DNA of 64,000 nt from a virus (Duplodnaviria > Caudoviricetes). Positions 13,628-55,052 of this stretch are shown here, piece by piece. Under the pieces are notes generated by a model that made no database searches, was not told the DNA's origin, and saw nothing but the letters and a program-made list of their open reading frames with translations. Within the stretch, counting starts at the first letter, position 1. Each line of letters starts with the position of its first letter. The DNA is taken from the IMG/VR virus record IMGVR_UViG_3300037455_000462, positions 41,908-105,907 of that record; one strand, 5' to 3'. The position numbers and the translations under genes are program-made.

Positions 13628-14575
13628 TTATTTATTCAGTTTTCTTATTAAAATTCTTTTATAAACGCCGTTTCCGTCAATGGTAAACTGACCTCCTTCA
13701 ACGCCAAACCCACCATTTCCGTCCACATCGTGTTCGTGACCGACCAACTCAAACTGCCTACTGTTGTACTTATCCATAAAGGTAACGGGTACACCCATAG
13801 TGCCTTCATAGTCCATAGGTATATCCTCAACCTTATCGACATTGATTGCGTTGTAATTGTCGTACACAGAATATATATACGGGTCGAATTTTTTGTTTGT
13901 TTCCAAGAATTCGGGTTCAAATCCTATGTCCATATTGGTGAACCATCTTATTCCCCTAACGCGGATTGTCCTGCCCGTTTCCGTTTCACCGCCGCACGCA
14001 CCATCATAGGTTTCATACCCTTTCGGAACGTCAAACACACATCCCCCGCATCTTATACTGACACCAAGGCGTATGTCCCCGCGCTTGAAATATTGGAAAA
14101 GTTCCTTTGTCGTGACGGCATTGATGTTGCCAAGCACGACAAATTCCTTGCCGTGTTTCATAACAAGCGAAACAAATTCTCTGAAAAGCGAGAACGGGGG
14201 ATTCGTCACCACAACGTCAGCATCCTTCAAAATCTTGACACATTCCATTGAACGGAAATCGCCGTCACCATCCAAATATATGACCGATATATTATTGCCG
14301 TCATATTCAGCGCATACTGCGCGTTTTGAATCGGCAGTCAGAAGATTGCGTTCCACATAGCAGGAAGCAATAAGTTTCTTCAAGTCGAGTTCGGCGAAGC
14401 GGTCTTTAAAATAAGCAAAGAACTTACTGACACGATAGTCATCGCAGTTGCAATACACAACCTTGCCTCTGAAAAAATCGGCATAGTGAGCCAATTCCTT
14501 CTCGATGTCGGAATACCGAGTGTAGAACTCGTCCTTTTTGTCCTTTCTCGCTATGTTAAGCCCGCTGTTGTCCAT
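13628..14575 (-). CDS. Adenine DNA methyltransferase, EcoRI-like family
   Basis: DEFYT, VYCNCDD, GDFRS, VTNPPFSLFREF. Confidence 0.9.
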   Translation of the reverse strand: MDNSGLNIARKDKKDEFYTRYSDIEKELAHYADFFRGKVVYCNCDDYRVSKFFAYFKDRFAELDLKKLIASCYVERNLLTADSKRAVCAEYDGNNISVIYLDGDGDFRSMECVKILKDADVVVTNPPFSLFREFVSLVMKHGKEFVVLGNINAVTTKELFQYFKRGDIRLGVSIRCGGCVFDVPKGYETYDGACGGETETGRTIRVRGIRWFTNMDIGFEPEFLETNKKFDPYIYSVYDNYNAINVDKVEDIPMDYEGTMGVPVTFMDKYNSRQFELVGHEHDVDGNGGFGVEGGQFTIDGNGVYKRILIRKLNK

Positions 14576-15309
14576 CAGAAAAGTTTTTTGTTTGCTTCAT
14601 CAATGCGTTTGCTCGCAATGTCAAAATATTCCTGCACCAATTCAAACCCTATGAAACTGCGGTTGGTATTCACGCAGGCTACGCCCGTAGTGCCGCTGCC
14701 CATACAGTTATCAAGAACGATACCGTTTTCGGGACAATACGAGCGTATTAGGAATTCCATAAGTTCAACGGGTTTCTGTGTTGGATGGATTTGGTCTTGT
14801 CTTCTCCACATCTGCGGAAAATCAAGAACGGTGGACGGATGCCTTGTTCCTTTGTTATCGGTCTGAACACCTTTTATTCCGTATTGCATATTATTCACGT
14901 TATTTGGTGTATATTTTCTGCTGTACGGCTTACCTTCACCCATCTGTGGTTCATAATAAGACGCACTTTCACCAAATACAAGAATCATCTCGTGCTTTTT
15001 GAGTGGCATATATTTCGCAGTAAGCGGAGAGCCGCACTTCGACTTCTTCCACACCATATCGTATCGGAAAAGCCTCTCGTTTGACAACGCCAACTTGAAC
15101 GCAAAAAGACCCGCACCGAAAAGGACAATGTTGCCTTTCGGCTTGACTATGCGTTCATAGGCAGACCACATATCTTCAAACGGAATCACAACATCCCATC
15201 GGTTAGCCGTTGTTCCGTATGGAAGGTCACACAGAACCAAATCGACACTGTTGTCCGCAATGCCTTTCATCAGTTCTATGCAGTCCCCGTGTTGCAGGTC
15301 AATCATCAA
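14575..15309 (-). CDS. N4/N6 DNA methyltransferase (beta class)
   Basis: DLPY, HPTQKP, LDNCMGSGTT. Confidence 0.92.
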   Translation of the reverse strand: MMIDLQHGDCIELMKGIADNSVDLVLCDLPYGTTANRWDVVIPFEDMWSAYERIVKPKGNIVLFGAGLFAFKLALSNERLFRYDMVWKKSKCGSPLTAKYMPLKKHEMILVFGESASYYEPQMGEGKPYSRKYTPNNVNNMQYGIKGVQTDNKGTRHPSTVLDFPQMWRRQDQIHPTQKPVELMEFLIRSYCPENGIVLDNCMGSGTTGVACVNTNRSFIGFELVQEYFDIASKRIDEANKKLF

Positions 15310-16025
15310 AACAGACCTCCTTTCGGCGTGCTAATTTCATCAACGACACGTTTGTTAGCCATATCGCAATATGCTTCGTCCAATTCAAACCCGATATATC
15401 TCCTATTGCTTTTCAACGCGGCTATCGCGGTAGTGCCGCTGCCCATAAACGGGTCAAGCACAACTTCGTTTTCCAACGAACTGCACTCGATAAGCGTCTG
15501 CATAAGCCCAACGGGTTTCTGTGAATTGTGTATGTTAGAACCGTCCTCGTTTTTGTCCTTCGTGTTTTGGAACGAAAGAAGGTCTGATACACCGCAATCG
15601 TATATCGGTCGCCCGCTTCCCTTCCGCAAGAAGAATATATGCTCGACTTGACCCATATAGTATGTTCCGCATATCTTCGTCCTTTTGTCCCACACAAGCA
15701 ATTTCACGAAATGGAATCCGCTGTTTTTCACAGAATCGAAGAAATGCGGGAGGTTCACGTTGTTGCACATAATGTAACAATGCGAACCGTCTTTGAGTAC
15801 ACGGTAGAATTCGGGCAGATAATCGTCAATGTCAATGTCATTGTTCTCGAATATCCTTCCTTTCATCGTTAGTTCGGATTCATAATGTCCGCCCATAGTC
15901 CCGTTATTGCCCTTTGGCGTAACCCTATATGGAGGGTCTGTAGCAATAAGGTCTATACTTCCATCGGGTATCTGCTTCATACCCTCAAGGCAGTCCATAT
16001 TATATATCCGATTCAGTTCAAGCAT
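15306..16025 (-). CDS. N4/N6 DNA methyltransferase (beta class)
   Basis: DPPY, HNSQKP, LDPFMGSGTT. Confidence 0.92.
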   Translation of the reverse strand: MLELNRIYNMDCLEGMKQIPDGSIDLIATDPPYRVTPKGNNGTMGGHYESELTMKGRIFENNDIDIDDYLPEFYRVLKDGSHCYIMCNNVNLPHFFDSVKNSGFHFVKLLVWDKRTKICGTYYMGQVEHIFFLRKGSGRPIYDCGVSDLLSFQNTKDKNEDGSNIHNSQKPVGLMQTLIECSSLENEVVLDPFMGSGTTAIAALKSNRRYIGFELDEAYCDMANKRVVDEISTPKGGLF

Positions 16026-16053
16026 TTCTTATATATAATAAAAAATCAACAAA

Positions 16054-16857
16054 TTAAAATAGAGTTTTTGGCTTTTCTTCCAATCCGTCTATGTTGTCAA
16101 GCAGCACTTCGATTATATGATACTGTTGTAGTTTCTTCATAGCGATGCAGGATTTATACGATTTCCAATCAAAGGTCTTGAGCAGGTTCAGTATCTCGTC
16201 CTTTTTGCGATGCGTGACCTTTATTTTGTATTCACCGCTGTAATGCTCGCCGTCATTCAGAATCTTCCCCATAGTGGCATCACCCCAACAACACATACGG
16301 ATATCGTAGTCGGTTATCGAATCATAACCCGCTTTGTCTTGGCGGTAAATTGTAACACCGTCCAATTGAAATTTGCGCTGCTTGTTGAGACCGTGCCTCG
16401 GTCGCCTATAGATGTTGAAACAGCACCAAAGGTTCTTGCCAGAATAGGATGCGTAACCCAAGTCCTCCGAATAAATCAAATCAAATTTATACAGCCGAAC
16501 CGTATTGTTCAACTGACCTATCGGGAGAATAAAGGCGATATAGTCACATATATCCACAGCCTTGTTGAAGAATTTGATTGCAAGACCCATTTTATCACCA
16601 TAGGGCGGATTTCCTATCACAAGCCTGCCTTTTTTATAAGGTATATCCATTTCAAGGAAGTCACCGCACTCTATGCCGTCCGCTTCGGGTTCTATGTCAA
16701 TAGCCCTGCATTCCAATAAATTGGAGAAAGAACCGCTGCCCGCCGAAGGTTCTATTATGTCGGTGATGTTATCACGACCTATAACCTCGAATGTCTTGGC
16801 GACAAGTCTTTCAGCCAAATCTGTCGGCGTATAATATTTGTCCAACCTTATTTTCAT
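16054..16857 (-). CDS. N6-adenine DNA methyltransferase (gamma-type motif order)
   Basis: YYTP, EPSAGSG, GNPPY. Confidence 0.88.
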   Translation of the reverse strand: MKIRLDKYYTPTDLAERLVAKTFEVIGRDNITDIIEPSAGSGSFSNLLECRAIDIEPEADGIECGDFLEMDIPYKKGRLVIGNPPYGDKMGLAIKFFNKAVDICDYIAFILPIGQLNNTVRLYKFDLIYSEDLGYASYSGKNLWCCFNIYRRPRHGLNKQRKFQLDGVTIYRQDKAGYDSITDYDIRMCCWGDATMGKILNDGEHYSGEYKIKVTHRKKDEILNLLKTFDWKSYKSCIAMKKLQQYHIIEVLLDNIDGLEEKPKTLF

Positions 16858-17798
16858 TTCGGACGCACGGGTTGGTTGGCTAAATTATCTCTGTTTTTAA
16901 GAACCACAATGCACTCGCTCGGCAAAGCCTCGCACTCGCCAAAGTCGTTCCACAGTTTAACCATATCCTCTGTCGGCTCTTCGTACACCTCGTATGCCGT
17001 TGTCGCGAATGTTTCGGAATCCGTCCACAGAACAATGTCGCCTTTGCCGATTATATTGCCGTTGATGTCGTATGCGTGGTCTTGCGTGAACGGCTCTGAC
17101 GAAGCCGACCTAACGGCGAGATGCGTGTTGCGGTCAATCCAATACTTGTGGATTGTGTAACCGTATTGTTCCAAGAAACCGAATGTCTTTCTGTGGCGTT
17201 CCTCGGTCATACCAAATACGCCCACATCGAAGCACTCGAAAATGATTGGCGGGAAATTGTTACTCACTATGGTCTTTCTCGCGCCGCACAAAACCTCAAA
17301 CTCGTGATTCTCAACGTCAATCTTGATAAGACCGATGTTCACAAATCCGTAACTGTCAAGGGTTTTTGCATTGACTATGGGCGTGTATTCATCCACGTTA
17401 AGCGAGTCAAAACCGTTGAATCTGACTTCCTTTTCTTTGTTCGAAAGAAAATCCATATACACGTCAATGTGTTCGGATTTCTCCCACAGCAGAGCGTTGG
17501 CACACAGTGCATACGCGCTTTCCTTGTTAGGCTCGAATGCGTATGCGTGTACGAAATTGGTATCCCAACAATACTCGCCGAGGTTTGCGCCGACATCTAT
17601 GATGCACTTGCTGAAATCAAAGAAACCGTCCTCGTTTCTGTTTATCTTGTTTATGCCGTCAACCTCAAGACACAAAGGAACGGGGTAATGGTCGGGGTAG
17701 TTGCTTTTCAAGCAATTAACATCCCAATCGCGCATAATCACGGAGTTCTTCGGTATTCTGACTGGAAACTTGTTGTATTCCTTGTAATAAAGTTCCAT
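16854..17798 (-). CDS. FkbM family methyltransferase with C-terminal extension
   Basis: IDVGANLG, AFEP, IKIDVE. Confidence 0.85.
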   Translation of the reverse strand: MELYYKEYNKFPVRIPKNSVIMRDWDVNCLKSNYPDHYPVPLCLEVDGINKINRNEDGFFDFSKCIIDVGANLGEYCWDTNFVHAYAFEPNKESAYALCANALLWEKSEHIDVYMDFLSNKEKEVRFNGFDSLNVDEYTPIVNAKTLDSYGFVNIGLIKIDVENHEFEVLCGARKTIVSNNFPPIIFECFDVGVFGMTEERHRKTFGFLEQYGYTIHKYWIDRNTHLAVRSASSEPFTQDHAYDINGNIIGKGDIVLWTDSETFATTAYEVYEEPTEDMVKLWNDFGECEALPSECIVVLKNRDNLANQPVRPK

Positions 17799-17799
17799 A

Positions 17800-18663
17800 T
17801 TAAAATAATGTTTTGTTGTTTTCTATTTGATAATTGACGACAAGAACCTCGTCATCGGAATCGGACTTGTTTGTCTTATGATATGATGAATTATTGTATT
17901 TGCTGCCGAGATGGAACGTGTTGTATCTGCCGCATATATCTTCAAGTATCGGGTTTCCGTATTTCAGATTGTTTGAAACGGCAAACCTCACACCACGGCT
18001 GTCAAGGTCACGGAGAATGTCGGACAGCGTTTGCTCCTGCGATTCAGTCCAACCGTTCTTCTCGTTGTAAACAGCCACGCTTCCCAAATACGGTGGGTCG
18101 AAATACACGAAGTCACGCTCTCCGAAAACCGAATAGTCAATGCGGTCAAATGAAAGGTTCGTGCATTTCACATCCTTGCCGCTGAAACGGATTTTCATAT
18201 CGTAGATGCCTGCCTTTTGGACATCGGAAAAATACGAGCGGTTCTCACCAAACGGCATATTGAATTTGCCGTTGCTTCCGAACCTGCCCTGCGCGTTGAA
18301 TGCGTAGCAACAAAGAACATAGAGCGTAATCCAATCCCCGCCGTTTTTGTTGTAGTCGTCCCTCAACTTCAGATAGCCGTCCTTGTTGTATATTGACAAT
18401 CTGTATTTCTCTATCACATTGTATATCCCCGATATGATGTCATCAAAATCGGTCGTGGCAAAACCGTTGAACATAGAGAACACATAATCCGCATATTCAT
18501 TGTAAACATAAGAATCCGCATCGGCGTTCAGCAGCACAGTACCGCTGCCGCCGAACACATCGACAAACGTGCCGATTCGTTTCGGAAACAAAGGGACAAT
18601 CTGCGGGAGCAACTTGAATTTGTTCCCCGTGTAGTTGATTGGCGATTTCAGATAAGCGCACAT
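17800..18663 (-). CDS. Dam/D12-class adenine DNA methyltransferase
   Basis: NYTGNK, DVFGGSG, FNMPFG, DPPY. Confidence 0.9.
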   Translation of the reverse strand: MCAYLKSPINYTGNKFKLLPQIVPLFPKRIGTFVDVFGGSGTVLLNADADSYVYNEYADYVFSMFNGFATTDFDDIISGIYNVIEKYRLSIYNKDGYLKLRDDYNKNGGDWITLYVLCCYAFNAQGRFGSNGKFNMPFGENRSYFSDVQKAGIYDMKIRFSGKDVKCTNLSFDRIDYSVFGERDFVYFDPPYLGSVAVYNEKNGWTESQEQTLSDILRDLDSRGVRFAVSNNLKYGNPILEDICGRYNTFHLGSKYNNSSYHKTNKSDSDDEVLVVNYQIENNKTLF

Positions 18664-18665
18664 AA

Positions 18666-19094
18666 CTAATCCAATTCAGTAACCAAGAACGACCTCAATT
18701 TGCCGTCAAGGTATGCGTGTACGGTTGGATTCGTGTTGAGTTCGTCCTCCGTGTCCTCAACGCCGTAATCCTCCGTGTTACTGTTGGCATAGCGTTCCAT
18801 ATCGGTGAAGATAAGCCCGCTCCATCCGCCTGGACCTCCGAGGCTGTAAGTTTCAATCCCGTCACGAACCTCTCCGCTTTTCAACGTGAAACCGCCGTCA
18901 AAGTATTCAAGTTCGTGTTCACATCTGTCCAAGAATTCGTCAGTGCAGGTAAACGGGTTTTCGTGTTTCGCTTGCGGATTGTCCCACATAAGCGCAATCA
19001 GATGCTTGGCAAAGCCGAGGTCTTTCACCTCACCGTACTTGTCAATGACTTCATCGTACTTTACATCGTTGTAGTTTTTGTTCTTGCTTTCCAT
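18666..19094 (-). CDS. Hypothetical protein
   Basis: 142-aa acidic ORF in operon. Confidence 0.65.
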   Translation of the reverse strand: MESKNKNYNDVKYDEVIDKYGEVKDLGFAKHLIALMWDNPQAKHENPFTCTDEFLDRCEHELEYFDGGFTLKSGEVRDGIETYSLGGPGGWSGLIFTDMERYANSNTEDYGVEDTEDELNTNPTVHAYLDGKLRSFLVTELD

Positions 19095-19095: not shown

Positions 19096-19824
19096 TTAAA
19101 AAAGTTTACTGTTAAACATATCCAATCGTTCCTTTGCTATGTTGAAATAGGTTTCGTCATTTTCTATGCCTATGAAATCCCTATTAAGATTAAGGCAGGC
19201 TACACCCGTAGTTCCGCTGCCCATACAGTTGTCAAGCACAACATCGCCCTCGTTAGTACCCATTCGGATTATACGCTCCATAAGGGCAACGGGCTTCTGT
19301 GTCGGATGACTTGTTTTCTCCTTCGAGTTATGCGGCAACGCGGGTATGTCAGCCCACACATCGGACAGCGTGATTCCGTCTTTCAGAACACCGTCCGTGT
19401 ATTCTTTGCGTTTCGTGTCTGGTAATATCTTTATGTTATTGAACGTCCCGTTCTCGCCTTTGCAATAATACGAGATTGGCTCGTAGCCGCTTGCGAGAGC
19501 GTGACCGCGTGTGTTGTTGAAACCGCGCTTCCTGCACCAAATGATTATCCGTTTCTCCTTGAAACAAGTGTCGAGGATTCGGCAGATGTGTCTGTTATAT
19601 TGGCGACTCGTGAAAAGGAAAACGTTGCCATTCGGCTTCAATATTCTGAAGTATTGGGCGACCAAGTATTCCACCCAAGACAAATACTCGCTCGATGTGT
19701 GCCATTGGTTGTCAAAGCCGTCAGCGACCACTTGGAAATAAGGAAGGTCGCAGACAACACAGTCAACCGAGTTGTCGGCGAAAGTCGGCATAACCGAAAG
19801 GCAGTCGTCATTATACAGTTTCAT
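19096..19824 (-). CDS. N4/N6 DNA methyltransferase (beta class)
   Basis: DLPY, HPTQKP, LDNCMGSGTT. Confidence 0.92.
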   Translation of the reverse strand: MKLYNDDCLSVMPTFADNSVDCVVCDLPYFQVVADGFDNQWHTSSEYLSWVEYLVAQYFRILKPNGNVFLFTSRQYNRHICRILDTCFKEKRIIIWCRKRGFNNTRGHALASGYEPISYYCKGENGTFNNIKILPDTKRKEYTDGVLKDGITLSDVWADIPALPHNSKEKTSHPTQKPVALMERIIRMGTNEGDVVLDNCMGSGTTGVACLNLNRDFIGIENDETYFNIAKERLDMFNSKLF

Positions 19825-19826
19825 CG

Positions 19827-20228
19827 CTACAGATTGAAATACGAATTGACTGTATCATATATGGAAGCCATACACGCATCAAGTTTGTCTATATAAACAA
19901 ACCTGCTGTCGATGTCGAACTTGGCATCCTTCCACGCGATTCTGTAAGTGACCGAGGTTTCGATGTGCGTGCCATCGGTCTTGAGGTTGTCATCGGGCTT
20001 GTTCATAACCTCGTATTCGTTGGTTATGATTCCCGTTATCTTTCCTTTGGAAACCGTAACGACATCGTTCACATCGTCATAACACTTGAAATACACCGTG
20101 TCGCCAATCGACAACTCGTGCCAACCGAATCTGTTGTTTGTCTGCGTGTCCTTTATGGCGTGCCTGCCTGCCTCCAATATGACACGGAGAGCGTTTTCCG
20201 TCTTTTCGAAATCTTTTTTATTGCCCAT
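19827..20228 (-). CDS. Hypothetical protein
   Basis: 133-aa ORF in operon. Confidence 0.65.
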   Translation of the reverse strand: MGNKKDFEKTENALRVILEAGRHAIKDTQTNNRFGWHELSIGDTVYFKCYDDVNDVVTVSKGKITGIITNEYEVMNKPDDNLKTDGTHIETSVTYRIAWKDAKFDIDSRFVYIDKLDACMASIYDTVNSYFNL

Positions 20229-21273
20229 TGATAAGTTTTTTTGCTATTTTCTTGATGTTCGATTTCACTTTGTCATCATATTCAAGCACATTGTCAACAT
20301 ACTTGTCAAGCATATCCTCTATGCTGACACACTCGCTCATACTGACTTTCGGCACATCTATAGTCAACGAACTTTTCTTCGGCACAAAATTGATGTTGTA
20401 AATGTCGGAGTTGTTGTTGATGTAGCCGTATATCTTGTGAAAACTCAATTTCGAAAGAAGGTCGGAATCAACGCAAATATCAATATACTTGCGTTTGCAG
20501 AACTCCTTGAATTCGCGAAGCGGAAGGTCTTTCACTTCCTCATAGTCAACTCTCTTGAACTCTGCCGACACGCCGTTCCTATAAAACTCTTCATCGCCGT
20601 TCTCTTTGACGCACATAACGCCTCTGTCGTTATCTCTGTCATTCTGCGACATCTGATATGGCGAACCCACATAGACTACGTTCTTGTAAGTCTGACGATG
20701 GTGTATGTGACCCGAATATATACGGCAGTCGAGTCGCGTGTCGTCCAAGTGGAGTTGGGATTCGGACTTGGTTCCAGAGGCGTTCATAGTGACACCGTTG
20801 AAATCGGCGTGGCAGACAACAATGTCGCAGTCATCCATACCGCAGAGCGTTTCGCTCAACAGACCGTTGTCGTTTATCCAAGGGACAAAGCCGACAACCT
20901 TGCCATTTGGCATAGCGATGCTTTTCGGCTCTTTGATTACACTGATGTTCGGTATATGCTTCAAGCAATCAATGGAAGTGATGTCGTTGCTGTCTTTTTC
21001 ATAGGCATCGTGGTTGCCGCAAAGCACATACACCTGCGAGAACATACGACCGAGTTTCTCGAAGATGTCCATAGTGAACGCCAACGTAGTAAGCCCGACC
21101 GTCTGTCTGTTGTCGAACACGTCCCCGCAATGTATGAGTATATCACCCTTGCGAGCCTTTTTCTCGAAAAGCGGGAACACGAATTTATCGAAGCATTCCC
21201 TAAAATGCTCCTCCCAAACTTTTGAATTGTTCTTTAATCCGAAATGCGTGTCGGAAATAAGCCAAATATTCAT
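20218..21273 (-). CDS. Recombination nuclease gp47/SbcD/Mre11-like
   Basis: SDTHFG, GDVFDNR, GNHD, SGHIH, YVGSPY. Confidence 0.9.
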   Translation of the reverse strand: MNIWLISDTHFGLKNNSKVWEEHFRECFDKFVFPLFEKKARKGDILIHCGDVFDNRQTVGLTTLAFTMDIFEKLGRMFSQVYVLCGNHDAYEKDSNDITSIDCLKHIPNISVIKEPKSIAMPNGKVVGFVPWINDNGLLSETLCGMDDCDIVVCHADFNGVTMNASGTKSESQLHLDDTRLDCRIYSGHIHHRQTYKNVVYVGSPYQMSQNDRDNDRGVMCVKENGDEEFYRNGVSAEFKRVDYEEVKDLPLREFKEFCKRKYIDICVDSDLLSKLSFHKIYGYINNNSDIYNINFVPKKSSLTIDVPKVSMSECVSIEDMLDKYVDNVLEYDDKVKSNIKKIAKKLINGQ

Positions 21274-21759
21274 TTAGAAAAGTTTTGACCACCCGTCATC
21301 GCAGACGAGCAGGTTGTTCAACAATGCTTTGTTTGTCGTGTATTTTGACAACTCCTCGTAGAGTTTCACTTTCGCGCCGTTTGGCAGGTCTTTGATTACG
21401 GAATCGTATTTGAGGTTGAAGTAGTCGCAATATATAAGCAATATATTACTCAACGTGGTTATGTTCTTAAACACCACATATATCCTCAAAAGGTTCATAG
21501 GTATGTCGGCGATTCCGAGTTTGCGGGAGTCAACATTGAATATGTCATTGCAGTCGCGAATGTCCATAGTCTTTATGTAATTCACAACGCTCTCCTCGAT
21601 TTCATCGACAACGCCGCCATAGTCGCTGACGGCGAACACATCCATATCCTCCGCCATAACACGCTTCATCGAAGATATGCTGTCCGATTCGGCAAAGGAA
21701 TCCTTGTCGTTGTTGTAGTAGATTCCGCGCAGTTTATTAACGTCAATTCTTTTTCCCAT
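21274..21759 (-). CDS. Hypothetical protein ending in KLF
   Basis: 161-aa ORF overlapping the end of the helicase N-half gene. Confidence 0.7.
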   Translation of the reverse strand: MGKRIDVNKLRGIYYNNDKDSFAESDSISSMKRVMAEDMDVFAVSDYGGVVDEIEESVVNYIKTMDIRDCNDIFNVDSRKLGIADIPMNLLRIYVVFKNITTLSNILLIYCDYFNLKYDSVIKDLPNGAKVKLYEELSKYTTNKALLNNLLVCDDGWSKLF

Positions 21760-21853
21760 TTTCTATCATTTTGAAAAACTCACCAATGGGTATCTTCATA
21801 GTTTCGCCCGTCCTTTTGTTGCGCACACAGATTTCCGATTCTCCGCAAACGCA
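21743..21853 (-). mobile_element. Atypically short split-intein N-fragment (36 aa)
   Basis: Cys1 directly after the P-loop Lys; intein block A pattern CxxGxSxI. Confidence 0.75.
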
Positions 21854-22441
21854 CTTACCAATATTGGACTGACCAACATAGCATACGAGTGTTTTCTCGT
21901 CATAGCCGCCCGTGATACCATCCATATATTTATAGCCGCTGCGGATTTTCTTGCTCGTGTCTTGGTAGTGCGAATCTGGCTCAAAGAAGTCCAATCCCTC
22001 GTCAAAATTGAAATTAACCCCGCTCGAAGAGCCAACCGTATCAACAATGCGCTGAACAACCGTGTCAACGTTGTCGATGTTGACATTCGTCATCTTGGCG
22101 AACTCAACACTGTCAACAAGATTCTTCTGCAAGAACTTCCACTTAATCCAAGACTCCGCCGTTTTCTTCAGCCACTCGCTGTCGTAGTTGTCCGTGTCTA
22201 TCGCGTAAACGGTTTCTATGAGTTCGTCTTCGATGTCAAGTTTGTCGCTATCGTGAACCAAAGCCTTCATTTGGTTCTCTGTCGGGACTTCCTTGTATTT
22301 GTCATAGAAACGCTTGGCAATGAGAATAAGGGCGGAGAGCGTCTTGTTGGAAAAGAAACTCTTGTCAACATTCTTGTAGTAAGTAGGGTTGTCCAAAATA
22401 TATTTGAACACCACGCTCTCATTAGTCGTCACTTTCTCCAT
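21743..22441 (-). CDS. Replicative helicase gp41/DnaB N-terminal half fused to a short split-intein N-fragment
   Basis: gp41-like N-terminus ending at Walker A GQSNIGK, then CVCGESEICVRNKRTGE...IPIGEFF and a stop. Confidence 0.8.
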   Translation of the reverse strand: MEKVTTNESVVFKYILDNPTYYKNVDKSFFSNKTLSALILIAKRFYDKYKEVPTENQMKALVHDSDKLDIEDELIETVYAIDTDNYDSEWLKKTAESWIKWKFLQKNLVDSVEFAKMTNVNIDNVDTVVQRIVDTVGSSSGVNFNFDEGLDFFEPDSHYQDTSKKIRSGYKYMDGITGGYDEKTLVCYVGQSNIGKCVCGESEICVRNKRTGETMKIPIGEFFKMIENGKKN

Positions 22442-22691
22442 CCCACGGTGTGTTTAATATTGTTATGTTATCGTCCTTGACTTTTATGTTACCGCGATTG
22501 ACAAGTTCCTGCATAAGTTCGGAGAGTATCTCATCATCCGCACTCACAACCTCGGACAACTTGCCGTACTTGAATTTCTGACCGCAATACACGACCATAT
22601 CATACAGCAGGTCATCCGAAGTCGGATAGGTGCTTTCATACTGATAAGTTCCCGTTATGTACTTGACGGGAACTTTGTTATAGTCAATCAT
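22422..22691 (-). CDS. Hypothetical protein
   Basis: 89-aa ORF between uvsX-C and the helicase gene. Confidence 0.65.
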   Translation of the reverse strand: MIDYNKVPVKYITGTYQYESTYPTSDDLLYDMVVYCGQKFKYGKLSEVVSADDEILSELMQELVNRGNIKVKDDNITILNTPWDGESDD

Positions 22692-23371
22692 TAGTTTTCA
22701 AGTTGTTCTTTGATGAGGGTGTCGGTGTCGATGTCATCGCCGTCACCGTCCTCATCCAAAATGGTTTCAATTTCGTCATTGTTCTTGCTGTCGCTGTAAG
22801 CGAATATGCCTTTGATTACGTTTTCGTCAAGGCGTTTAATCGCATCCTCGTTCCAAACTTTAGCGGAACACACCTCCGACCATTTGAACGGTTCTAACCG
22901 ATGGTCGGTGCAGATATACCTGCCGCTGTCTGACGGTTGGAAATAGACGTTCTCGTCAAGCGGGTGCTGACGGCATTTCTCCTTCTCGGCATCGCCGAGT
23001 TTGGCGTATTCCTTCGCCGTGATGAACTTTCCGCGACCGATACCGCAGGCATCCCAACTCATATACTCCTGCAAGCCGACAAATCGGTTCATACCTTTTT
23101 GGAACGAGATATGGAACTTCACGACAGTCGGTACGCAGAAGCGGTTTTTCTGCGGCTTGGCTGTGACAATGATACCCGTTTGGTCTGTGCCTTCCTTCAG
23201 TTTGGCTTTCGTCATATTGAGAATGATGGACGCGCCGTACACAACACCAGTGTTATGATTGATGACACCATTATCTGTGATGTAATGCTGAACTTCAGCA
23301 ACAGTCAAATCATTAACTTTCATACAAGAGCCTTCTTGTACACTTTTTACCTTTAATGTCTTTAATTGCAT
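22691..23371 (-). CDS. uvsX: Split-intein C-fragment (40 aa, 23252-23371) plus UvsX/RecA C-terminal half
   Basis: VNDLTV...HYITDNGVINHN then TGVVYGASII...KNRF. Confidence 0.9.
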   Translation of the reverse strand: MQLKTLKVKSVQEGSCMKVNDLTVAEVQHYITDNGVINHNTGVVYGASIILNMTKAKLKEGTDQTGIIVTAKPQKNRFCVPTVVKFHISFQKGMNRFVGLQEYMSWDACGIGRGKFITAKEYAKLGDAEKEKCRQHPLDENVYFQPSDSGRYICTDHRLEPFKWSEVCSAKVWNEDAIKRLDENVIKGIFAYSDSKNNDEIETILDEDGDGDDIDTDTLIKEQLEN

Positions 23372-24323
23372 ATTCTACTGCTTTTTTAATTGATTGTATG
23401 TTATTATTTTTTACATATAAATCGTTTACCCTTATTATTCCCAAAATATCATCGCGCACAGACATAATAACTTTATCTCTAATTTCGTCATATTCCATAT
23501 TATGCCAATATCCACCGTCATATTCCAATATGATAATACCATTATCGCATTTTATATACCCGTCACACACAATATACTGTTTATTATATACATCACACAA
23601 CATTGTATTTTGCACATTAATTCCAAAATGTAAATGTTTCACGTCAGATAAAAATGAAGACAAATTATCAAAAAACACATTCTCCTCCTTTGAAGAATAA
23701 GGTGTCCGCTCTCTCCAAAATTTATCTGGATTATCAATATATAACGCTTTTTTACTTTCAGACATTTTTTGAATATGTCTATAATACTCTTGTTCATCGG
23801 AATAACATTCTTTACAAGAACCGTTATATTTTCTAATAATCTTCTTGGATTCTTCTTCGCTAAAGCCAAGACCAATCCAATACGCAACAGACCAAACACT
23901 CATTTGGGATAACTCCTCGCGGCTATATTTTTGATTTTTAATTTCTGTAAACTTTTTTTGATAACCCGACACCATTTTAATAGCATCGTCTTCAGAATAC
24001 CCACGAGATATATAGTATTCAGCACATCGTTTACTATTTCTACGCTGTTGATATAGAATACGCCTTTTTATATCCGAAACATCATCCCATCCCATAGATT
24101 TCCAATAATCTATGGAAACAACACTTGAATTCTTACCATTACGCAATGACTTCATATATTTTGATATATTGTCATATACAGTCCTCATACGTTTTGTTTT
24201 TGATGTTTTGAATATATCATACAACAATTCTATGTGGTTTCTATTGTCTAAATTGACATTCGGGAATGAAACTGATATGTATTTTAAAAAATCGTTATAA
24301 TTTTTGATGTCATCGTATTTCAT
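23313..24323 (-). CDS. Free-standing homing endonuclease, Vsr/DUF559-like
   Basis: Repeated YW..G.S helices and C-terminal CDGY...ILEYDGGYWH; AT-rich; lies between the intein halves. Confidence 0.8.
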   Translation of the reverse strand: MKYDDIKNYNDFLKYISVSFPNVNLDNRNHIELLYDIFKTSKTKRMRTVYDNISKYMKSLRNGKNSSVVSIDYWKSMGWDDVSDIKRRILYQQRRNSKRCAEYYISRGYSEDDAIKMVSGYQKKFTEIKNQKYSREELSQMSVWSVAYWIGLGFSEEESKKIIRKYNGSCKECYSDEQEYYRHIQKMSESKKALYIDNPDKFWRERTPYSSKEENVFFDNLSSFLSDVKHLHFGINVQNTMLCDVYNKQYIVCDGYIKCDNGIIILEYDGGYWHNMEYDEIRDKVIMSVRDDILGIIRVNDLYVKNNNIQSIKKAVEYAIKDIKGKKCTRRLLYES

Positions 24324-24357
24324 TGTACTTTATTTTTAATATTTATAAAGTACAATG
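24321..24357 (-). promoter_or_regulatory. 13-bp hairpin covering the endonuclease start codon, overlapping a late promoter (24340-24347)
   Basis: CATTGTACTTTAT (24321-24333) / ATAAAGTACAATG (24345-24357). Confidence 0.8.
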
Positions 24358-24364
24358 CGGCGGA

Positions 24365-25345
24365 TTATTCATTAAAAATGAATTGTTTTACAATATCGCC
24401 GTTAATCAAATCTCTTGCATATACCCAATTAGAATCATCATTAACATCGTCAGTTTCTCCTCCAACATAAAAACGATGGTCTTCCGAGCAAGTTATGACA
24501 CTACCATCTTCAAACTCAATAGTATATGTGTTTTTTTCAAATTCCCAAGTTTTCAATATCTCCTTATTTCCGCATAATGTCATAACTTCATCACCAACTC
24601 GTATATCCTCAATGTTTTTATACAAACCATCGGACATCAAAACTTTTGAACCAGGTATCAAACATCCACCGCTCTGTATGTCCTGCGAATACAAGTCAAG
24701 GGTTTTGTATGTGTGGTTGGTGAACACGAAAGTCCCGCCGATGATTCCGAGTTTGGACATCATAATTCTGAACACGGACTTCATCATCTTGGCGCGGCTC
24801 ATATCAGCCTTGTCTGTGTAAGCCTTCGCATCGTCAATCTCTTTCTGCGAGGCAAGGTTGCCCGCGCTGTCAAGGGCTATGAAAAGTTTCGGAATCTCGT
24901 TGCCGTCCGATTTCTCCTCGATGAGTTTGTCAAGGATGTTTGTCACATTGCTTCTGAACTCTTGGATTGTCTGCACGGGTTCGTAGCGCATCATATCCAA
25001 GTCGATTCCGAAATTGGACGCAAGCGTGTCGTCAACGGCGTTCTCGCTGTCGTAGAATATGACGAAATATCCCATCTTCTGCGCCTCTCGGCACATATTG
25101 AGCAGAAGGTAGGTTTTGCCGACACCCGACTCACCAGACAGACAAACACTTCTGTTGTTCGGAACGCCTTTCAAAAGGCTTCCGCTCATACAAGCGTTGA
25201 GAATGTAGTTGCCCGTATGGATATACTCGGTGATTTTTGAAGTGCCTCCGCCCTCGGACAGAAGTGCGCCGAATTTGGAGTTCTTGTTCATTTCCTTGTT
25301 GAGGTCGGCGATTGAAAACACGCCGCCTTTTGACTGTTTTGCCAT
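24365..25345 (-). CDS. uvsX: UvsX/RecA N-terminal half plus split-intein N-fragment (99 aa, from 24664)
   Basis: GESGVGKT, YDSE, LDSAGNLAS, TNHTY, then SGG followed by CLIPGSKV...CSEDHRF. Confidence 0.92.
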   Translation of the reverse strand: MAKQSKGGVFSIADLNKEMNKNSKFGALLSEGGGTSKITEYIHTGNYILNACMSGSLLKGVPNNRSVCLSGESGVGKTYLLLNMCREAQKMGYFVIFYDSENAVDDTLASNFGIDLDMMRYEPVQTIQEFRSNVTNILDKLIEEKSDGNEIPKLFIALDSAGNLASQKEIDDAKAYTDKADMSRAKMMKSVFRIMMSKLGIIGGTFVFTNHTYKTLDLYSQDIQSGGCLIPGSKVLMSDGLYKNIEDIRVGDEVMTLCGNKEILKTWEFEKNTYTIEFEDGSVITCSEDHRFYVGGETDDVNDDSNWVYARDLINGDIVKQFIFNE

Positions 25346-25729: not shown

Positions 25730-26584
25730 TCAAAACAAGCCTTTTCGTGAGCATCCCTTCAGATACAGACTTTCCTTTACGATAGTGTCGTTCCTGCTTC
25801 CGAAAATCCTTGTGTAGGAACTGTTGCCGCTCAACACGTACTCGTGTCTGTCATAAAGGTATCTCGGAACTTCGTATGTATTGTCGTCATCCCCGTTTAT
25901 TCCGTTGAACGAAAGGGCGTATGGACATTTCAATTCAAACATCCAATTCCAAAGTTCCTCAAAGTCGATAGAACCGAAATACATCCCCTTTGTGTTCGCA
26001 TACGGCGGGTCAAGGTAAACAAAGTCATTTGCATTCGGCTTTATGTCACTATACGTGCAATTTATGAATTCAACGTCATTCTCATTCAAAAGAGAATTCC
26101 ACTCATACACAATGGTCGCGAGTTTATCGGGTTGTATGCCATCCCGTGTCGCGTGATATGTATTGTTGAAATTACCATCCTTGTTGAACCTCGGAACACC
26201 GTTTGTCGTTGTGCGCATAATGAACATAAAGTCAAGCGGGTCTTTTGTCTCGTTATAACGAGAACGAATACCAACGAAGTAATCTTTCTTTTCCTCTATA
26301 CTCTTTTTCTCGTGAATACCGCGCCACAATTCGCGGTAATGCTCAATCACATCGTAAGGTCTGTCCTTTATCGCGTTCCACAACTCGATAAGGCTTCCGT
26401 TCAAATCGCTGCACACATAGCGACCAACCTTGATTTTGCTCGAAAGCAGCCTGCGCAAAACACTCGCACCGCCGCAAAACGGCTCGTAGTATGTTTCTAT
26501 TTTCTTCGGGAAATATCCGATTATATATTCCGCTTGGCTGCGCTTGCTGCCGCTCCACTTGATTACGGGTTCAAACATTCTCAA
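25730..26584 (-). CDS. Dam/D12-class adenine DNA methyltransferase
   Basis: KWSGSK, EPFCGG, RFNKDGNFN, DPPY. Confidence 0.9.
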   Translation of the reverse strand: MRMFEPVIKWSGSKRSQAEYIIGYFPKKIETYYEPFCGGASVLRRLLSSKIKVGRYVCSDLNGSLIELWNAIKDRPYDVIEHYRELWRGIHEKKSIEEKKDYFVGIRSRYNETKDPLDFMFIMRTTTNGVPRFNKDGNFNNTYHATRDGIQPDKLATIVYEWNSLLNENDVEFINCTYSDIKPNANDFVYLDPPYANTKGMYFGSIDFEELWNWMFELKCPYALSFNGINGDDDNTYEVPRYLYDRHEYVLSGNSSYTRIFGSRNDTIVKESLYLKGCSRKGLF

Positions 26585-27149: not shown

Positions 27150-27770
27150 TCATTTCTTTTTGTAGATTTCCAAAAATTCATCAACACTGATAACGTGCAT
27201 AATGTTCTTTCTGTCCGCAACCATCTCATCATAAGTAAGTTGGGATTTTTCGGGGAACACCAAATCCTGCGGGTTGTCGTGGTATTCGATTACACAGCAT
27301 CCGCAGTCGGTATCGACCGTGTTGAACTTGATGCCCTGCTTGTGGAGCATAGTTATCGCTTTCCACACGTCACCGTTCCAACCTCCGACCACTCTCGGCA
27401 CAAGTTGAGCCTCGTAGTTGAGCGGTATGCAGTCGTGTACAACAATGCGACCGCCCTTGTTCAGATGTTTGAGGCTGTTGATAATGTCCCTGCCCGCGAA
27501 TTCCTCCGTGTGCATACCGTCAACGAAAATGATGTCAAACTTCTGCTCGGTCTGCGCGAACAGTTCGTCAGAAGTCATACGCCAAGTGAGGCAAGGCGGA
27601 ATCATATCCTCGTTCTTTATCAAGTCGTTGAACTCCGTGAACGGGTCAACACAATACTTTTCCTCACATTCAACGAACACAAAGCAGCGTCCGTCATCCA
27701 AGCCGATTTCGAGATAACTCTTGTAACCGTTTTGCTTGATAAGATAATTGATAATATCAGTATGTTTCAT
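27150..27770 (-). CDS. Class I SAM methyltransferase (Methyltransf_24-like)
   Basis: YLEIG, FDIIFVDGMH, IVVHD, WNGDVWK. Confidence 0.85.
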   Translation of the reverse strand: MKHTDIINYLIKQNGYKSYLEIGLDDGRCFVFVECEEKYCVDPFTEFNDLIKNEDMIPPCLTWRMTSDELFAQTEQKFDIIFVDGMHTEEFAGRDIINSLKHLNKGGRIVVHDCIPLNYEAQLVPRVVGGWNGDVWKAITMLHKQGIKFNTVDTDCGCCVIEYHDNPQDLVFPEKSQLTYDEMVADRKNIMHVISVDEFLEIYKKK

Positions 27771-35710: not shown

Positions 35711-35732
35711 AGCAAAAAATCTTATTACGCCG

Positions 35733-35799
35733 CAAAGATACAAATTTTTTATATACACAAGATTTTTTTATACAAAAGTTATGAACAGATTTATCAACA
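35733..35799 (-). promoter_or_regulatory. Bacteroidota-type promoter (TATCTTTG) with tandem upstream DnaA-box-like 9-mers
   Basis: -7 element at 35733-35740; TTATGAACA at 35779 and TTATCAACA at 35791. Confidence 0.65.
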
Positions 35800-41463: not shown

Positions 41464-42579
41464 TTATGAGTTTGTCGTCAGTATCACATAGTGGTCGATG
41501 TACTTCATTGTTGTCTTGACAACTTTGTCGTAGGTCAGCCGTTCAAGTGAAGGCGGCATTTTCATACCGCTGATGTTGGTGAACCTCATCGGGTTCTCGT
41601 ACAGAACGGCATCGTTCATTTCGCGTCTGATTTGCAGGCTTGACATAACGGTTTCGTAGCGTTCCTTTGTGAGAAGGTTTTTCGCGTCCGCTATGAGTTC
41701 CTCCATACGTCCTTTGAGTTTGTTTGTGTTCACAGAATCCGTGCAGGCTGTGATATAGACCACGCCGCTGTCGTGTTTTGCCATAACGCCGCCGCATACA
41801 TAGTAGGTCAGACCGAGTTTCTCGCGGAGTTCGACATAGAATGGGGATTCGAGACCGTTTGTCAGCATATCTATGCCTACTTGCAGGAACGGGTAGTCGG
41901 ATTTGTTCACCCTTTTCTTCGAGAACAAGAACACGGGTGTTTTGTCATCGGACGCGATTTCAACGGGTTCTATTCCGCTGCGCTTTCCGAATTTGTATGG
42001 GGCTTCGTCTTTGTCGATGCTGCGGTATTCCGCTTTGTCAAAGAACTCCGTTCTCTTTCTGCCGACTTCGACCACGCGGGCTGCTTTGGTGAAGCGTTCA
42101 GCGTAAACGCGATTCATATCCTCGTATGTGAAGTTCTCAATATCGGATTTCTTTCCGATTGTCATATATTCACCCCACCATTTGCGCATAACTTGCAGCC
42201 AACTTGCTCTGTCGGAGTCGAATATGTTGTCCATATATTCTTGCAGGACTACGTTGCGCTCGTTGATGAAATCTTCATCGGTCACACAATCCAAACCGCC
42301 CGTCAGACGCTTGTAGAGTTCGGTTTTCAGTTCGTTTGTAAGATATTTGTCGAGACCCGTGAAATACACGACAACGCTTTCTGTCGATGTGTATGCGTTC
42401 CAATTGATACCGAGTTTCGACAGTTTGTCGTACATATCCTTGAACGTCTTGCAGATTAAGTGTTCCATAAGGTGCATTGTTCCCTGCTGACCTTCTTTTT
42501 CGATTCTTGAGCCTGCATCAAAAACAATATGCAGGGTAGTCATTTTCAGACTTTTCTTTTTGAAAATGTAGTTTTTCAT
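41464..42579 (-). CDS. M16 family zinc peptidase
   Basis: HLMEH, NAYTS, ELREKLGLTY. Confidence 0.9.
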   Translation of the reverse strand: MKNYIFKKKSLKMTTLHIVFDAGSRIEKEGQQGTMHLMEHLICKTFKDMYDKLSKLGINWNAYTSTESVVVYFTGLDKYLTNELKTELYKRLTGGLDCVTDEDFINERNVVLQEYMDNIFDSDRASWLQVMRKWWGEYMTIGKKSDIENFTYEDMNRVYAERFTKAARVVEVGRKRTEFFDKAEYRSIDKDEAPYKFGKRSGIEPVEIASDDKTPVFLFSKKRVNKSDYPFLQVGIDMLTNGLESPFYVELREKLGLTYYVCGGVMAKHDSGVVYITACTDSVNTNKLKGRMEELIADAKNLLTKERYETVMSSLQIRREMNDAVLYENPMRFTNISGMKMPPSLERLTYDKVVKTTMKYIDHYVILTTNS

Positions 42580-52880: not shown

Positions 52881-52897
52881 TTCTTGTCCGATTTTTG

Positions 52898-52923
52898 GCG
52901 ACCGACCGCTGTCGGTCGGTCGC
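52898..52923 (+). other. GC-rich 11-bp hairpin with 4-nt loop, DGR target-recognition type
   Basis: GCGACCGACCG-CTGT-CGGTCGGTCGC starting 18 nt after the stop codon. Confidence 0.7.
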
Positions 52924-52953
52924 GGACAATTTTTTGAATAAACTCTCATTTTT

Positions 52954-52984
52954 AATAAAGCCCGTTAATTCGGGCTTTATTTTT
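52954..52984 (+). terminator. Rho-independent terminator
   Basis: AATAAAGCCCG...CGGGCTTTATT followed by Ts. Confidence 0.7.
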
Positions 52985-53045
52985 ATAGTTTAAGTATATT
53001 TGTGATTTTTTTATTATATTAGTTTGTAACCAAAAATTTAGAATT

Positions 53046-53759
53046 ATGGATTTGAAAGGACTAATGGCGGTTCAAGTGCCGCAAAAAACAAGAACTTACG
53101 CCCCGATTTCTTACGAGGAAATTCACAATTCCATTATGGAAAACATTGAGCGTAACAACTTTGTACTCAACGGAACATCCGTCCGCACCCGCAATGGTGC
53201 TGATGCTGTCGTTATGTATGACCTTGGCGACAAACTCGCCAAGGAGGACAGCAAGGAACTCGGAATCCGTGTAGGATTCAAGAACTCGTACAACCGAAGG
53301 GTCAGTTTCGGTTTTGCCATCGGCAGCGTTGTGTTCATCTGCACAAACGGTATGGTTAGCGGCGAGTATATGATTAAGAAGCAGCATCGTATGAACGACT
53401 TGAACGTCTATGTCACCGACCTCATCGGTCAGTATTTCTCCCAAGTCCGTTACGAGCATACTCGGAACATTATGTTTATGAACGACTTGAAGCAGCAGAG
53501 GGTTGACCGTGCGGTCGCCTCCCGCGTAATCGGTGACTTGTTCACGAACAACAGAATCATCAACCAAGGTCAGTTGCGTAAAATGGCTGACGAAATCTAC
53601 CATTCCACGAATTTCGGCAATCTGACCGACAACGAAACAATCAGTGGTTGGGATTTGTACAACCACGGAACTGAAGCATTAAAAACATCGGCTAATGTCA
53701 ACTACTTTGCAAAACATACAACCTACAACGATTATTTCAGAGGATATTTTGGAATCTGA
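53046..53759 (+). CDS. DUF932-like protein
   Basis: NSYN...G..VFICTNGMV motif. Confidence 0.7.
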   Translation: MDLKGLMAVQVPQKTRTYAPISYEEIHNSIMENIERNNFVLNGTSVRTRNGADAVVMYDLGDKLAKEDSKELGIRVGFKNSYNRRVSFGFAIGSVVFICTNGMVSGEYMIKKQHRMNDLNVYVTDLIGQYFSQVRYEHTRNIMFMNDLKQQRVDRAVASRVIGDLFTNNRIINQGQLRKMADEIYHSTNFGNLTDNETISGWDLYNHGTEALKTSANVNYFAKHTTYNDYFRGYFGI

Positions 53760-53915
53760 AATAAACGACCTCATTGACAAGTTGGACAAGCCGAAGGGAA
53801 CGCTCAAACTTATGAATGACGCTCTCTTCGGCTGCGACTTGGAAGATGTTGATTTTGACGGTTGTGATATGGAAGTAGAGCCGAAAGAAAAGGAAAAACC
53901 AACAATAACGTATAT

Positions 53916-55052
53916 ATGATGTACACATTGCTTATAGACGGACACAACTTTTTGTTCAGAACGATGTATGTGTTTCCGAGCAAGAAAGGCGAACTTATGC
54001 TTTCGACTGACGAATCTCGGAAATTGTATGTGTCCAAACTCGAACAGAATCTCAATGCTGTTCTCCGCGACTTGGAGAATATCGTTGACAGATGCGTGTT
54101 CATTATGGACTCGGCTTCTTGGAGAAAGTCGATAGAGTCCGATGTCGATTACAAGGGAACTCGCCATCAAGATGAAACCGTTGATTTCAACGGTCTTGAC
54201 AAGTGTGTAGCCGAATTCACGGAGATTGTGAAAAACTACAACGTGACGGTTTCCAAGACAAAGAAAGCGGAGGCTGACGACCTTATATTCTATTGGTCTA
54301 ACGTCCTCACGGCAAAGGGGATTCCCGTGATTATGTACACGAGTGACAAGGATATGCTCCAACTTGTGCGCAGCGTGAACGGCGTTCCGTCAGTCCTATA
54401 TTCTGATGTCACTAAAAAAATGTACACCCCGAAGGATTTTCTGAAAGGAAAGGATGTTTCGGAAACCATTTACGAGGCGTTTACAAACAAGCACAAGATT
54501 GATGTGTTTGATGAAAAAACGCAGTTCGAGTATCTCTTGAAGAAACGCAGTCTTGAAATGATTGAAGTCGATGCTGACGAGTGTCTTTTCACAAAGGTCA
54601 TTGTCGGCGACAAATCCGATAATATCTCGTCAATTTATTCATATGTCAAGAATGGGAAAACATATAACGTGACGGAGAAGAAAGCGGAGAAAATCCTTGA
54701 GAATTTCAAGGATAAGGTCGGCGGTCTGAATGCCGAATACCTATTTCTTGACGATACCGTGAACGCCCTTGCGCAATCCTGCTGCGAGGTTGTCGGCGTT
54801 GACTGTGCTGACAAGATAGCGGAGAATATCAGACGGAATACTAAATTCATCGTGCTGAATAGGAATGTGATTCCAGAGGATGTGGTTGAGGGAATGCACG
54901 AGGATGTCAAGGTTCTCGCAAAAACTATGCGCAGGGTCAAATACAACGCCTTGAAACCGCAGGAATCCGTTGTCAAGAAAACGGAGAGGATTTTCAAAGG
55001 TGTTGATGATTCCGATATGTCGTTTATCAAAGAAAAGAAAACACTGTTCTGA
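53916..55052 (+). CDS. 5'-3' exonuclease / T4 RNase H-like
   Basis: LIDGHN, YKGTR, EADD, SDKDMLQL, GDKSDNI. Confidence 0.92.
   Translation: MMYTLLIDGHNFLFRTMYVFPSKKGELMLSTDESRKLYVSKLEQNLNAVLRDLENIVDRCVFIMDSASWRKSIESDVDYKGTRHQDETVDFNGLDKCVAEFTEIVKNYNVTVSKTKKAEADDLIFYWSNVLTAKGIPVIMYTSDKDMLQLVRSVNGVPSVLYSDVTKKMYTPKDFLKGKDVSETIYEAFTNKHKIDVFDEKTQFEYLLKKRSLEMIEVDADECLFTKVIVGDKSDNISSIYSYVKNGKTYNVTEKKAEKILENFKDKVGGLNAEYLFLDDTVNALAQSCCEVVGVDCADKIAENIRRNTKFIVLNRNVIPEDVVEGMHEDVKVLAKTMRRVKYNALKPQESVVKKTERIFKGVDDSDMSFIKEKKTLF

Follow-up and report, generated by a model that had tools for sequence, protein, structure and literature searches.

The window analysed here comprises 64,000 nucleotides, bases 41908-105907 of a linear IMG/VR virus contig of 105,907 bp (IMGVR_UViG_3300037455_000462, G000 in the following) with a CheckV completeness of 33%. 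Nine proteins encoded in the window, including DNA methyltransferases, the large subunit of a type II topoisomerase and a flap endonuclease (FEN), end in the dipeptide Leu-Phe (LF). Judged from sequence, the ending K-x-L-F, or L-[FW] across the clade as a whole, probably serves as a docking peptide for the phage's own sliding clamp of the gp45/PCNA type, through which DNA modification would be tied to replication. A minimal clamp-docking peptide on unrelated DNA enzymes had been proposed in an earlier note on this DNA. It is the best-supported reading, as the tail is an add-on that is also present on the B-family DNA polymerase (PolB) of related phages, and these relatives encode a clamp and a clamp loader; the idea is weakened by the lack of a detected clamp or polymerase on the window's own contig, and by a gp55-like protein and one DNA methyltransferase that are untailed.

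The G000 contig represents part of the genome of a very large T4-like myovirus. It encodes a tail sheath protein, a gp15-like protein, gp47, a gp41-like fragment, an intein-split UvsX/RecA, the topoisomerase II large subunit, a FEN similar to T4 RNase H, and a gp55-like late sigma factor. Its relatives additionally encode the gp23 capsid protein, gp44, gp46 and a PolB of the gp43 type. Five relatives were read whole, namely G001 (192 kb, 70% complete), G002 (36 kb), G003 (122 kb, 38% complete), G004 (413 kb, 100% complete) and G006 (363 kb, 96% complete); G005 (388 kb, 93% complete) was covered by searches only. Totals of open reading frames (ORFs) are approximate, as they come from a simple in-house caller based on codon usage. 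GenBank phages yielded no match in a megablast search with 5.6 kb of window sequence.

Occurrence and composition of the C-terminal tail

All nine proteins for which the earlier note had described an LF end were recovered as real ORFs at the coordinates given below, each with Leu-Phe at its C-terminus. A tenth LF-ended protein (219 aa, ending EPKLF, no family; L001:8747-9406, minus strand) is encoded on the G000 contig upstream of the window. Ten of the 108 ORFs of the contig thus end in LF, compared with 0.43 expected from the frequency of the LF dipeptide (binomial P = 3e-11), and no other dipeptide is found as often at their C-termini; the observation of the earlier note is confirmed. LF ends are similarly enriched in G001 (12/222, P 1e-10), G003 (8/143, P 4e-8) and G004 (22/507, P 2e-17). 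The enrichment extends to G006, where eight of 430 ORFs end in LF and seven in LW. The chance expectation is approximately 0.4-1.7 LF ends per genome.

The basic residues said to precede the dipeptide hold as a statistical tendency. Among 68 distinct tails from five genomes, Lys is found at position -4 in 49%, compared with 14% in the control, and Lys or Arg at -3 or -4 in 69%, compared with 31%. The tail pattern can be written as K(-4, 49%)-[KSTAG](-3)-L-[F 87% / W 13%]-COOH, with Leu in 100% of the tails. Position -5 is N in 16%, K in 13% and V in 12%. The codons of the tail also vary: Leu is encoded by CTT, CTG, CTA, TTA or TTG, Phe by TTT or TTC, and the stop codon is TAA or TGA. This variation indicates that selection acts on the protein, and that the tail is not a DNA motif; the DNA downstream of the tailed genes is not conserved either.

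Proteins carrying the tail

The tailed genes of the window lie on the minus strand, with the exception of the exonuclease gene. An N6/N4 (beta-class) DNA methyltransferase of 244 aa (14575-15309; PF01555, E 2.6e-31) ends in EANKKLF, and its orthologues in G001 and G004 end in GKKLF and NKKLF, respectively. Two further N6/N4 DNA methyltransferases, of 239 aa (15306-16025; PF01555, E 5.7e-35) and 242 aa (19096-19824; PF01555, E 1.5e-49), end in PKGGLF and FNSKLF. The methyltransferase-like protein of 267 aa at 16054-16857, which ends in KPKTLF, has no Pfam match and was assigned through phrog_5172 (E 1e-29) and phrog_799 'DNA methyltransferase' (E 5e-14); its G001 orthologue (70% identity) ends in KTKSLF. 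The D12/Dam class is represented by an adenine DNA methyltransferase of 287 aa (17800-18663; PF02086, E 2e-31), ending in NNKTLF, and by a DNA methyltransferase of 284 aa (25730-26584; PF02086, E 3.3e-33), ending in SRKGLF, whose orthologues end in KKTLF (G001), KRCLF (G004) and DNSLW (G006).

The tail is also present on the large (GyrB-like) subunit of the type II topoisomerase (645 aa, ending RPKRLF; 32146-34083; PF00204, PF01751, PF16898, PF02518), and on the 5'-3' exonuclease/flap endonuclease similar to T4 RNase H (378 aa, ending EKKTLF; 53916-55052, plus strand; PF02739, E 6e-19). The remaining tailed protein of the window is a helical protein of 161 aa without family (21274-21759), which ends in DDGWSKLF and is encoded between the gp41-like fragment and gp47. 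It gave no match in Pfam, PHROG, PDB sequences, the Atlas or Foldseek. Its position next to gp47, like that of T4 gene 55, made it a candidate for the gp55 late sigma factor; this was ruled out, since phrog_234 matches another, untailed ORF of 120 aa. The earlier note had also stated that two other methyltransferases lack the tail, and indeed the FkbM-type methyltransferase (16854-17798, minus strand; PF05050, E 2.3e-10) ends in PVRPK and the Methyltransf_24 protein (27150-27770, minus strand; PF13578, E 3.3e-11) in IYKKK.

Across five genomes, 69 tailed proteins were found, and sequence comparison groups them into 29 unrelated clusters. Of these proteins, 50 work on DNA or on nucleotides, and no virion protein was recognised in the whole set. 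In the relatives, the tail is present on PolB, C5 methyltransferases, further N6/N4 and Dam methyltransferases, two methyltransferases defined by PHROG families and a Mom-like modifier, as well as on a dUTPase, an NT5C deoxynucleotidase, a serine resolvase and a NUMOD4-HNH endonuclease. Methyltransferases and replication enzymes are thus tail carriers as first described, but the list of clients is wider, including the Mom-like modifier, C5 methyltransferases, dUTPase, resolvase and HNH endonuclease. The helicase, primase, UvsX, gp46, gp47, the clamp loader and the gp55-like sigma factor are untailed. For the helicase, primase, UvsX, gp46 and gp47 this is expected of proteins that do not use the clamp.

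G003 also possesses three paralogues of 416-457 aa (17591-18931, 19718-21091 and 23100-24350; L017/L018), all ending in K-L-F, with no Pfam or PHROG family beyond a weak glycosyltransferase-10 match (E 0.002). A possible function is DNA glycosylation, with the enzymes tethered in the same way. In G001, a protein of 88 aa (109313-109579; L012:9313-9579, minus strand) ends in KSKRLF, and an adjoining paralogue of 87 aa is untailed. The 88-aa protein recalls a clamp-dependent co-activator of the gp33 type by its size and tail; no homology was found.

The tail as an appended module

Orthologues in four related phage contigs keep LF, and the residues before it drift. The topoisomerase orthologues (73-85% identity) end in VKSLF, TASLF and PKELF, compared with PKRLF in the window, and the FEN orthologues in PNTLF (G003) and NKALF (G004), compared with KKTLF. 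Eight homologues of the 161-aa protein, with identities as low as 41%, all retain L160 and F161.

Of the 120 database homologues most similar to the methyltransferase at 19096-19824, 50 end in LF, five in LW, three in IF and three in VF. Many of the untailed homologues terminate right after the conserved IAKERL helix, whereas the tailed ones are approximately 8-10 residues longer. Where these untailed homologues end, at the last conserved helix, the tailed ones have a short appended module, in line with the suggestion that the tail was added to these methyltransferases. In the AlphaFold2 model of the 161-aa protein, the core (residues 50-153) has a predicted local distance difference test score (pLDDT) of approximately 80, and the tail (residues 154-161) a pLDDT below 50. 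Homologue ends and pLDDT agree that this short hydrophobic/aromatic peptide lies beyond the folded domain, in a flexible terminus, as it does in clients with the T4 sliding-clamp-binding motif (SCBM).

A different ending was observed in close homologues of the same methyltransferase (approximately 72-74% identity; P0008-P0016, P0020, P0024 and L107:10001-10741), which terminate in P-I-W followed by 1-5 residues. Phage L107, which carries such a methyltransferase, possesses a polymerase of the Pol III alpha type, and an S-adenosylmethionine synthetase gene adjoins the methyltransferase gene. The PIW end was considered as a third shared tail type and rejected, as no common tail was found among 25 neighbouring L107 genes. 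IMG/VR relatives retrieved with a PIW-type query were not of the PIW type. These ends may represent a different docking code for a different clamp.

The DNA polymerase of the relatives

T4 and RB69 gp43 bind gp45 through their C-terminus (PMC6212786). The main finding in favour of the clamp is that the gp43-like PolB of relatives bears L-[FW] at this very place. In G004, the gp43-like PolB is split, and the ORF matching T4 gp43 residues 543-774 ends in KSALF. The PolB ORFs of this phage (286876-289693; L053:6876-9693) are in permuted order, with the C-terminal half located upstream of the N-terminal exonuclease half (gp43 11-494). G006 possesses an intact PolB of 981 aa, which ends in EGLW, and six or seven methyltransferases of G006 likewise end in LW instead of LF. 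In L109, an unrelated and independent ENA contig, the C-terminal PolB piece ends in NALW and its gene is directly followed by the clamp gene; the contig also encodes a methyltransferase ending in KPLWE and a 193-aa protein ending in NKLF. The polymerase gene of G005 is fragmented, with a C-terminus that is not cleanly readable.

According to PDB chain ends, T4 gp43 terminates in EKASLDFLFG and RB69 gp43 in KKASLFDMFDF. The K-K-A-S-L-F half of the RB69 peptide resembles tails of the clade such as KKKTASLF, SKSALF and KSKALF. The likeness is confined to this half, and the T4 LDFLF consensus, to which the tails had first been compared, is not matched.

A diverged sliding clamp and its loader

Standard clamp models (PF00712, PF02768, PF00705, PF09116, PF02916 and phrog_223) detected nothing credible in seven related records; a weak PF02916 match was located inside a prohead-protease protein and was discarded. 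Searches using phmmer with T4 gp45, and with a hidden Markov model (HMM) of 11 gp45 sequences, gave E values of at least 0.03 only, and the top match of the gp45 search (G001 186606-187268) was rejected as an unrelated protein of a family with an 'MKIL..F' N-terminus. A comparison of 86 alignments of G004/G006 core genes against gp45 with hhalign gave no match, with the clamp pair falling below the BLAST orthology cut-off used.

The weak top match of the gp45 HMM and hhalign was G006 131692-132573, which jackhmmer ties to G004 203606-204397 and G003 69057-69854. A profile search for this family among 1.8 billion representatives revealed 142 relatives of approximately 250 aa. The profile of an alignment of 78 sequences (A2) found sliding clamps as all of its top five matches among PDB sequences, these being archaeal PCNA entries (E 7e-4 to 4e-2), and aligned with the 11-sequence gp45 profile over 190 columns (hhalign, 97.2% probability, E 4e-11). 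The AlphaFold2 model (pLDDT 95.5, predicted template modelling score 0.91) is a two-domain beta-alpha clamp subunit, which Foldseek matches to PCNA (E ~4e-12, probability 1.00, template modelling score 0.6-0.7). By profile, the protein of the relatives thus resembles gp45/PCNA along its full length, and its fold is that of a two-domain clamp. On the basis of these profiles and the model, the relatives encode a previously unrecognised and highly diverged sliding clamp of the gp45/PCNA type, a remote homologue of gp45. Standard gp45, PCNA and DnaN models miss this clamp family.

The clamp protein is acidic (isoelectric point 4.5-4.8). Its gene is present in G003, G004, G005 and G006, and is single copy in every relative that is at least 90% complete. 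It adjoins PolB in two further lineages, and lies within the methyltransferase array in G006. A gp44-like clamp loader is encoded in G003, G004 and G006.

Proposed mechanism and comparison with known systems

In the proposed mechanism, the tail, carried on a flexible extension, would insert into the hydrophobic pocket of the phage gp45/PCNA-type clamp, at a site shared with the phage DNA polymerase, which would dock through an identical tail. In the simplest reading, this clamp-binding motif of the polymerase would have spread to numerous enzymes that modify or process DNA. The gp44-like loader would place clamps on replicating phage DNA. Loaded clamps would carry or recruit the polymerase, the flap nuclease and topoisomerase II, and also DNA modifiers, that is, methyltransferases of at least four families and, in relatives, the Mom-like modifier, dUTPase and others. 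New phage DNA would be modified during or soon after copying. We infer the physical binding, the timing at the fork and the benefit, which would be protection from host restriction; the proposals of the earlier note that the methyltransferases were acquired and that they counter several host restriction systems are inferences as well.

The SCBMs described in T4 and RB69 (the gp43 C-terminus, gp33, gp55 and the LDFLF loop of T4 ligase) all bind the hydrophobic pocket of gp45 (PMC6212786, PMC7892883). Similar to them, the tail described here is a short hydrophobic/aromatic peptide after Lys, on a flexible end, present at the C-terminus of a B-family polymerase and common to other clients. The phages are also T4-like in possessing homologues of gp23, gp44, gp46, gp47, gp41, UvsX and gp55, and their clamp is a remote gp45 homologue. 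However, methyltransferases, other modifiers, topoisomerase II and dUTPase are not known gp45 clients in T4, the gp55 homologue is untailed, and the clamp is too diverged for the Pfam and PHROG gp45 models.

A further parallel is found in eukaryotes, in which DNMT1, a maintenance DNA methyltransferase, binds PCNA via a PIP box (QxxLxxFF) and PCNA acts as a 'tool-belt' for FEN1, Lig1, Pol delta and UNG2 (reviewed in PMC9690074). Similar to the DNMT1-PCNA system, a DNA methyltransferase, a flap nuclease and a polymerase would share one docking site on a clamp of PCNA fold. Nevertheless, the tail has no sequence relation to the PIP box, with no Q at -8/-7 and a single C-terminal aromatic residue. 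Unlike in DNMT1, the motif is strictly C-terminal and present on many orphan viral methyltransferases, where it presumably serves protection and not the inheritance of a mark.

A broader proposal, which the sequences favour slightly, is that the clade uses a two-residue C-terminal Leu-Phe/Trp code to load its whole DNA-modification arsenal onto the diverged PCNA-like clamp. The arsenal would include methyltransferases of at least four unrelated families, the Mom-like modifier, possibly DNA glycosyltransferases, dUTPase, the resolvase and the homing endonuclease, beside polymerase, FEN and topoisomerase. The code would co-evolve with the clamp, with F in some lineages and W in others. If so, these phages would possess a viral tool-belt in which protective modification is co-replicative, and captured enzymes would be plugged in by a few added residues.

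If the tail binds the clamp, anti-restriction methylation in these phages would be physically coupled to replication, like DNMT1-PCNA in eukaryotes. This would explain how a phage with many methyltransferases protects each copy of its genome before host nucleases see it, and the minimal peptide would let horizontally acquired enzymes join the replisome. The L-F/W ending would also predict phage proteins that act at the fork, for example the 161-aa and 219-aa proteins. In the literature searched, clamp-binding motifs were found for polymerases, ligase, gp33/gp55 and MuC, and none was found for phage methyltransferases. The new elements are the minimal motif, its presence on many phage DNA methyltransferases and modifiers, and the diverged clamp family; the class of mechanism is already textbook knowledge.

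Observations that weigh against clamp docking

Several observations argue against the tail being a clamp-docking peptide. The motif consists of two invariant residues and a Lys bias only, and L-F is all that the reduced tail K-x-L-[FW]-COOH has in common with the L-D-F-L-F consensus of the T4 SCBM. The linker is very short, with approximately 6-10 residues beyond the fold. Neither a clamp gene (by model and family searches) nor a polymerase gene was found on the G000 contig, which is 33% complete; with both off the contig, the link to the clamp rests on relatives at approximately 73-85% identity.

The distribution of the tail also includes exceptions. The gp55-like late sigma factor (G000 4220-4582, 120 aa; phrog_234) lacks it, and some orthologues of tailed proteins are untailed (G003 89939-90745 and G003 7420-8064). 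Conversely, a GNAT acetyltransferase and approximately 18 proteins of unknown function are tailed, and some tailed members known from a single genome may be due to chance. Furthermore, the earlier note was right that six DNA methyltransferases are tailed, but missed a seventh, an adenine DNA methyltransferase of the EcoRI type (13628-14575, minus strand; PF13651, E 5e-102), which ends in RKLNK, and whose orthologues in G001 and G004 are likewise without tail. The EcoRI-type enzyme may work independently of the clamp or serve another function. Its gene directly adjoins the array of tailed methyltransferase genes.

Alternative explanations

Four alternatives to docking on the phage clamp were weighed; in descending order, the tail would bind the beta clamp of the host, direct proteins to another hub or compartment, act as a degron, or be due to chance. 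The bacterial beta-clamp-binding motif has the form QL[S/D]LF or QLxLxL and is found in Pol II, IV, V, delta, Hda, MutS and others. Similar to the tail, it ends in L-F, is often C-terminal, and has been added as a peptide module to DNA enzymes that are not related to each other. We consider it unlikely that the tail is a degenerate form of this motif that docks on the host beta sliding clamp (DnaN), even though L-F equals residues 4-5 of the bacterial consensus, several clients carry this pentapeptide at their C-terminus, and the window's contig is without a clamp gene. The consensus Q and the first L are absent: N, K or V predominate at the Q position (-5), and the second position (-4), Leu in the bacterial motif, is K in 49%. 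Moreover, a clamp, a loader and a B-family polymerase are all encoded within the clade itself, this polymerase bears the same tail, and the replacement of F by W is lineage-specific and parallels that in the phage polymerase. A two-domain phage clamp of the trimeric type, and not DnaN, is the likely partner.

The tail could also be an address for another site, such as the phage single-stranded DNA-binding protein, the clamp loader, or a signal for import into or retention in a replication compartment, although this is similarly improbable. The clients (polymerase, topoisomerase, nuclease, DNA modifiers, dUTPase and deoxynucleotidase) fit any signal for going to replicating DNA, and clamp binding is itself only a probable role of the tail. 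Nonetheless, the helicase, primase, UvsX/RecA, gp46/47 and the late sigma factor would need the same address, yet they are untailed, and the position and chemistry of the tail match the terminus through which the polymerase is known to bind the clamp in T4/RB69 (PMC6212786).

It is very unlikely that the tail serves as a C-terminal degron for the phage ClpB/ClpA-like AAA+ protein (35800-37794) or for a host protease, by which the removal of early enzymes would be timed. Short hydrophobic C-termini can be degrons, as in the ssrA tag ending in LAA, and genes for a Clp-type AAA+ protein with two rings, for a DnaJ-like protein and for an M16 peptidase are present in the window. However, the polymerase, topoisomerase and flap nuclease are tailed, although replication requires them from start to end, the surroundings of the AAA+ gene showed no ClpP-type peptidase, and the likeness to known degrons is weak. 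A binding pocket that co-evolves with the tail would better account for the lineage-specific switch from F to W, in which the polymerase takes part.

An origin of the LF ends in chance, composition or a DNA signal at gene ends (a T-rich terminator, or a promoter overlapping the stop), as the T-rich end AAA CTT TTT TAA of some genes might suggest, is effectively refuted by per-genome P values of 3e-11 to 2e-17, by the use of five Leu codons, both Phe codons and two stops with non-conserved DNA downstream, and by the invariance of the tail in protein families down to 41% identity.

Other features of the window and its relatives

The UvsX/RecA gene of the window is interrupted (22691-25345, minus strand), with an ORF for the N-terminal part that contains Hint/intein motifs, an ORF of 336 aa in between, and an ORF for the C-terminal part with an intein-splicing motif. 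A DnaB/gp41-like helicase fragment of 232 aa (21743-22441, minus strand) is encoded nearby. The window also possesses genes for the DnaJ-like protein (30589-31302), the two-ring AAA+ protein of the ClpA/ClpB type (35800-37794) and the M16-family peptidase (41464-42579), as well as for a GmrSD_N-domain protein (35093-35758) and an ADP-ribosyltransferase (55052-55582). On the G000 contig, a gene of the TnpB/IS605 OrfB type (9764-11071, minus strand; L001; PF01385, PF07282, PF12323) adjoins the gene of the tenth LF-tailed protein. Another recurrent C-terminal pattern was observed in G004, where more than 40 paralogues of approximately 130-160 aa, many with PEGMY-like C-termini, are encoded at approximately 85-98 kb and 242-262 kb.

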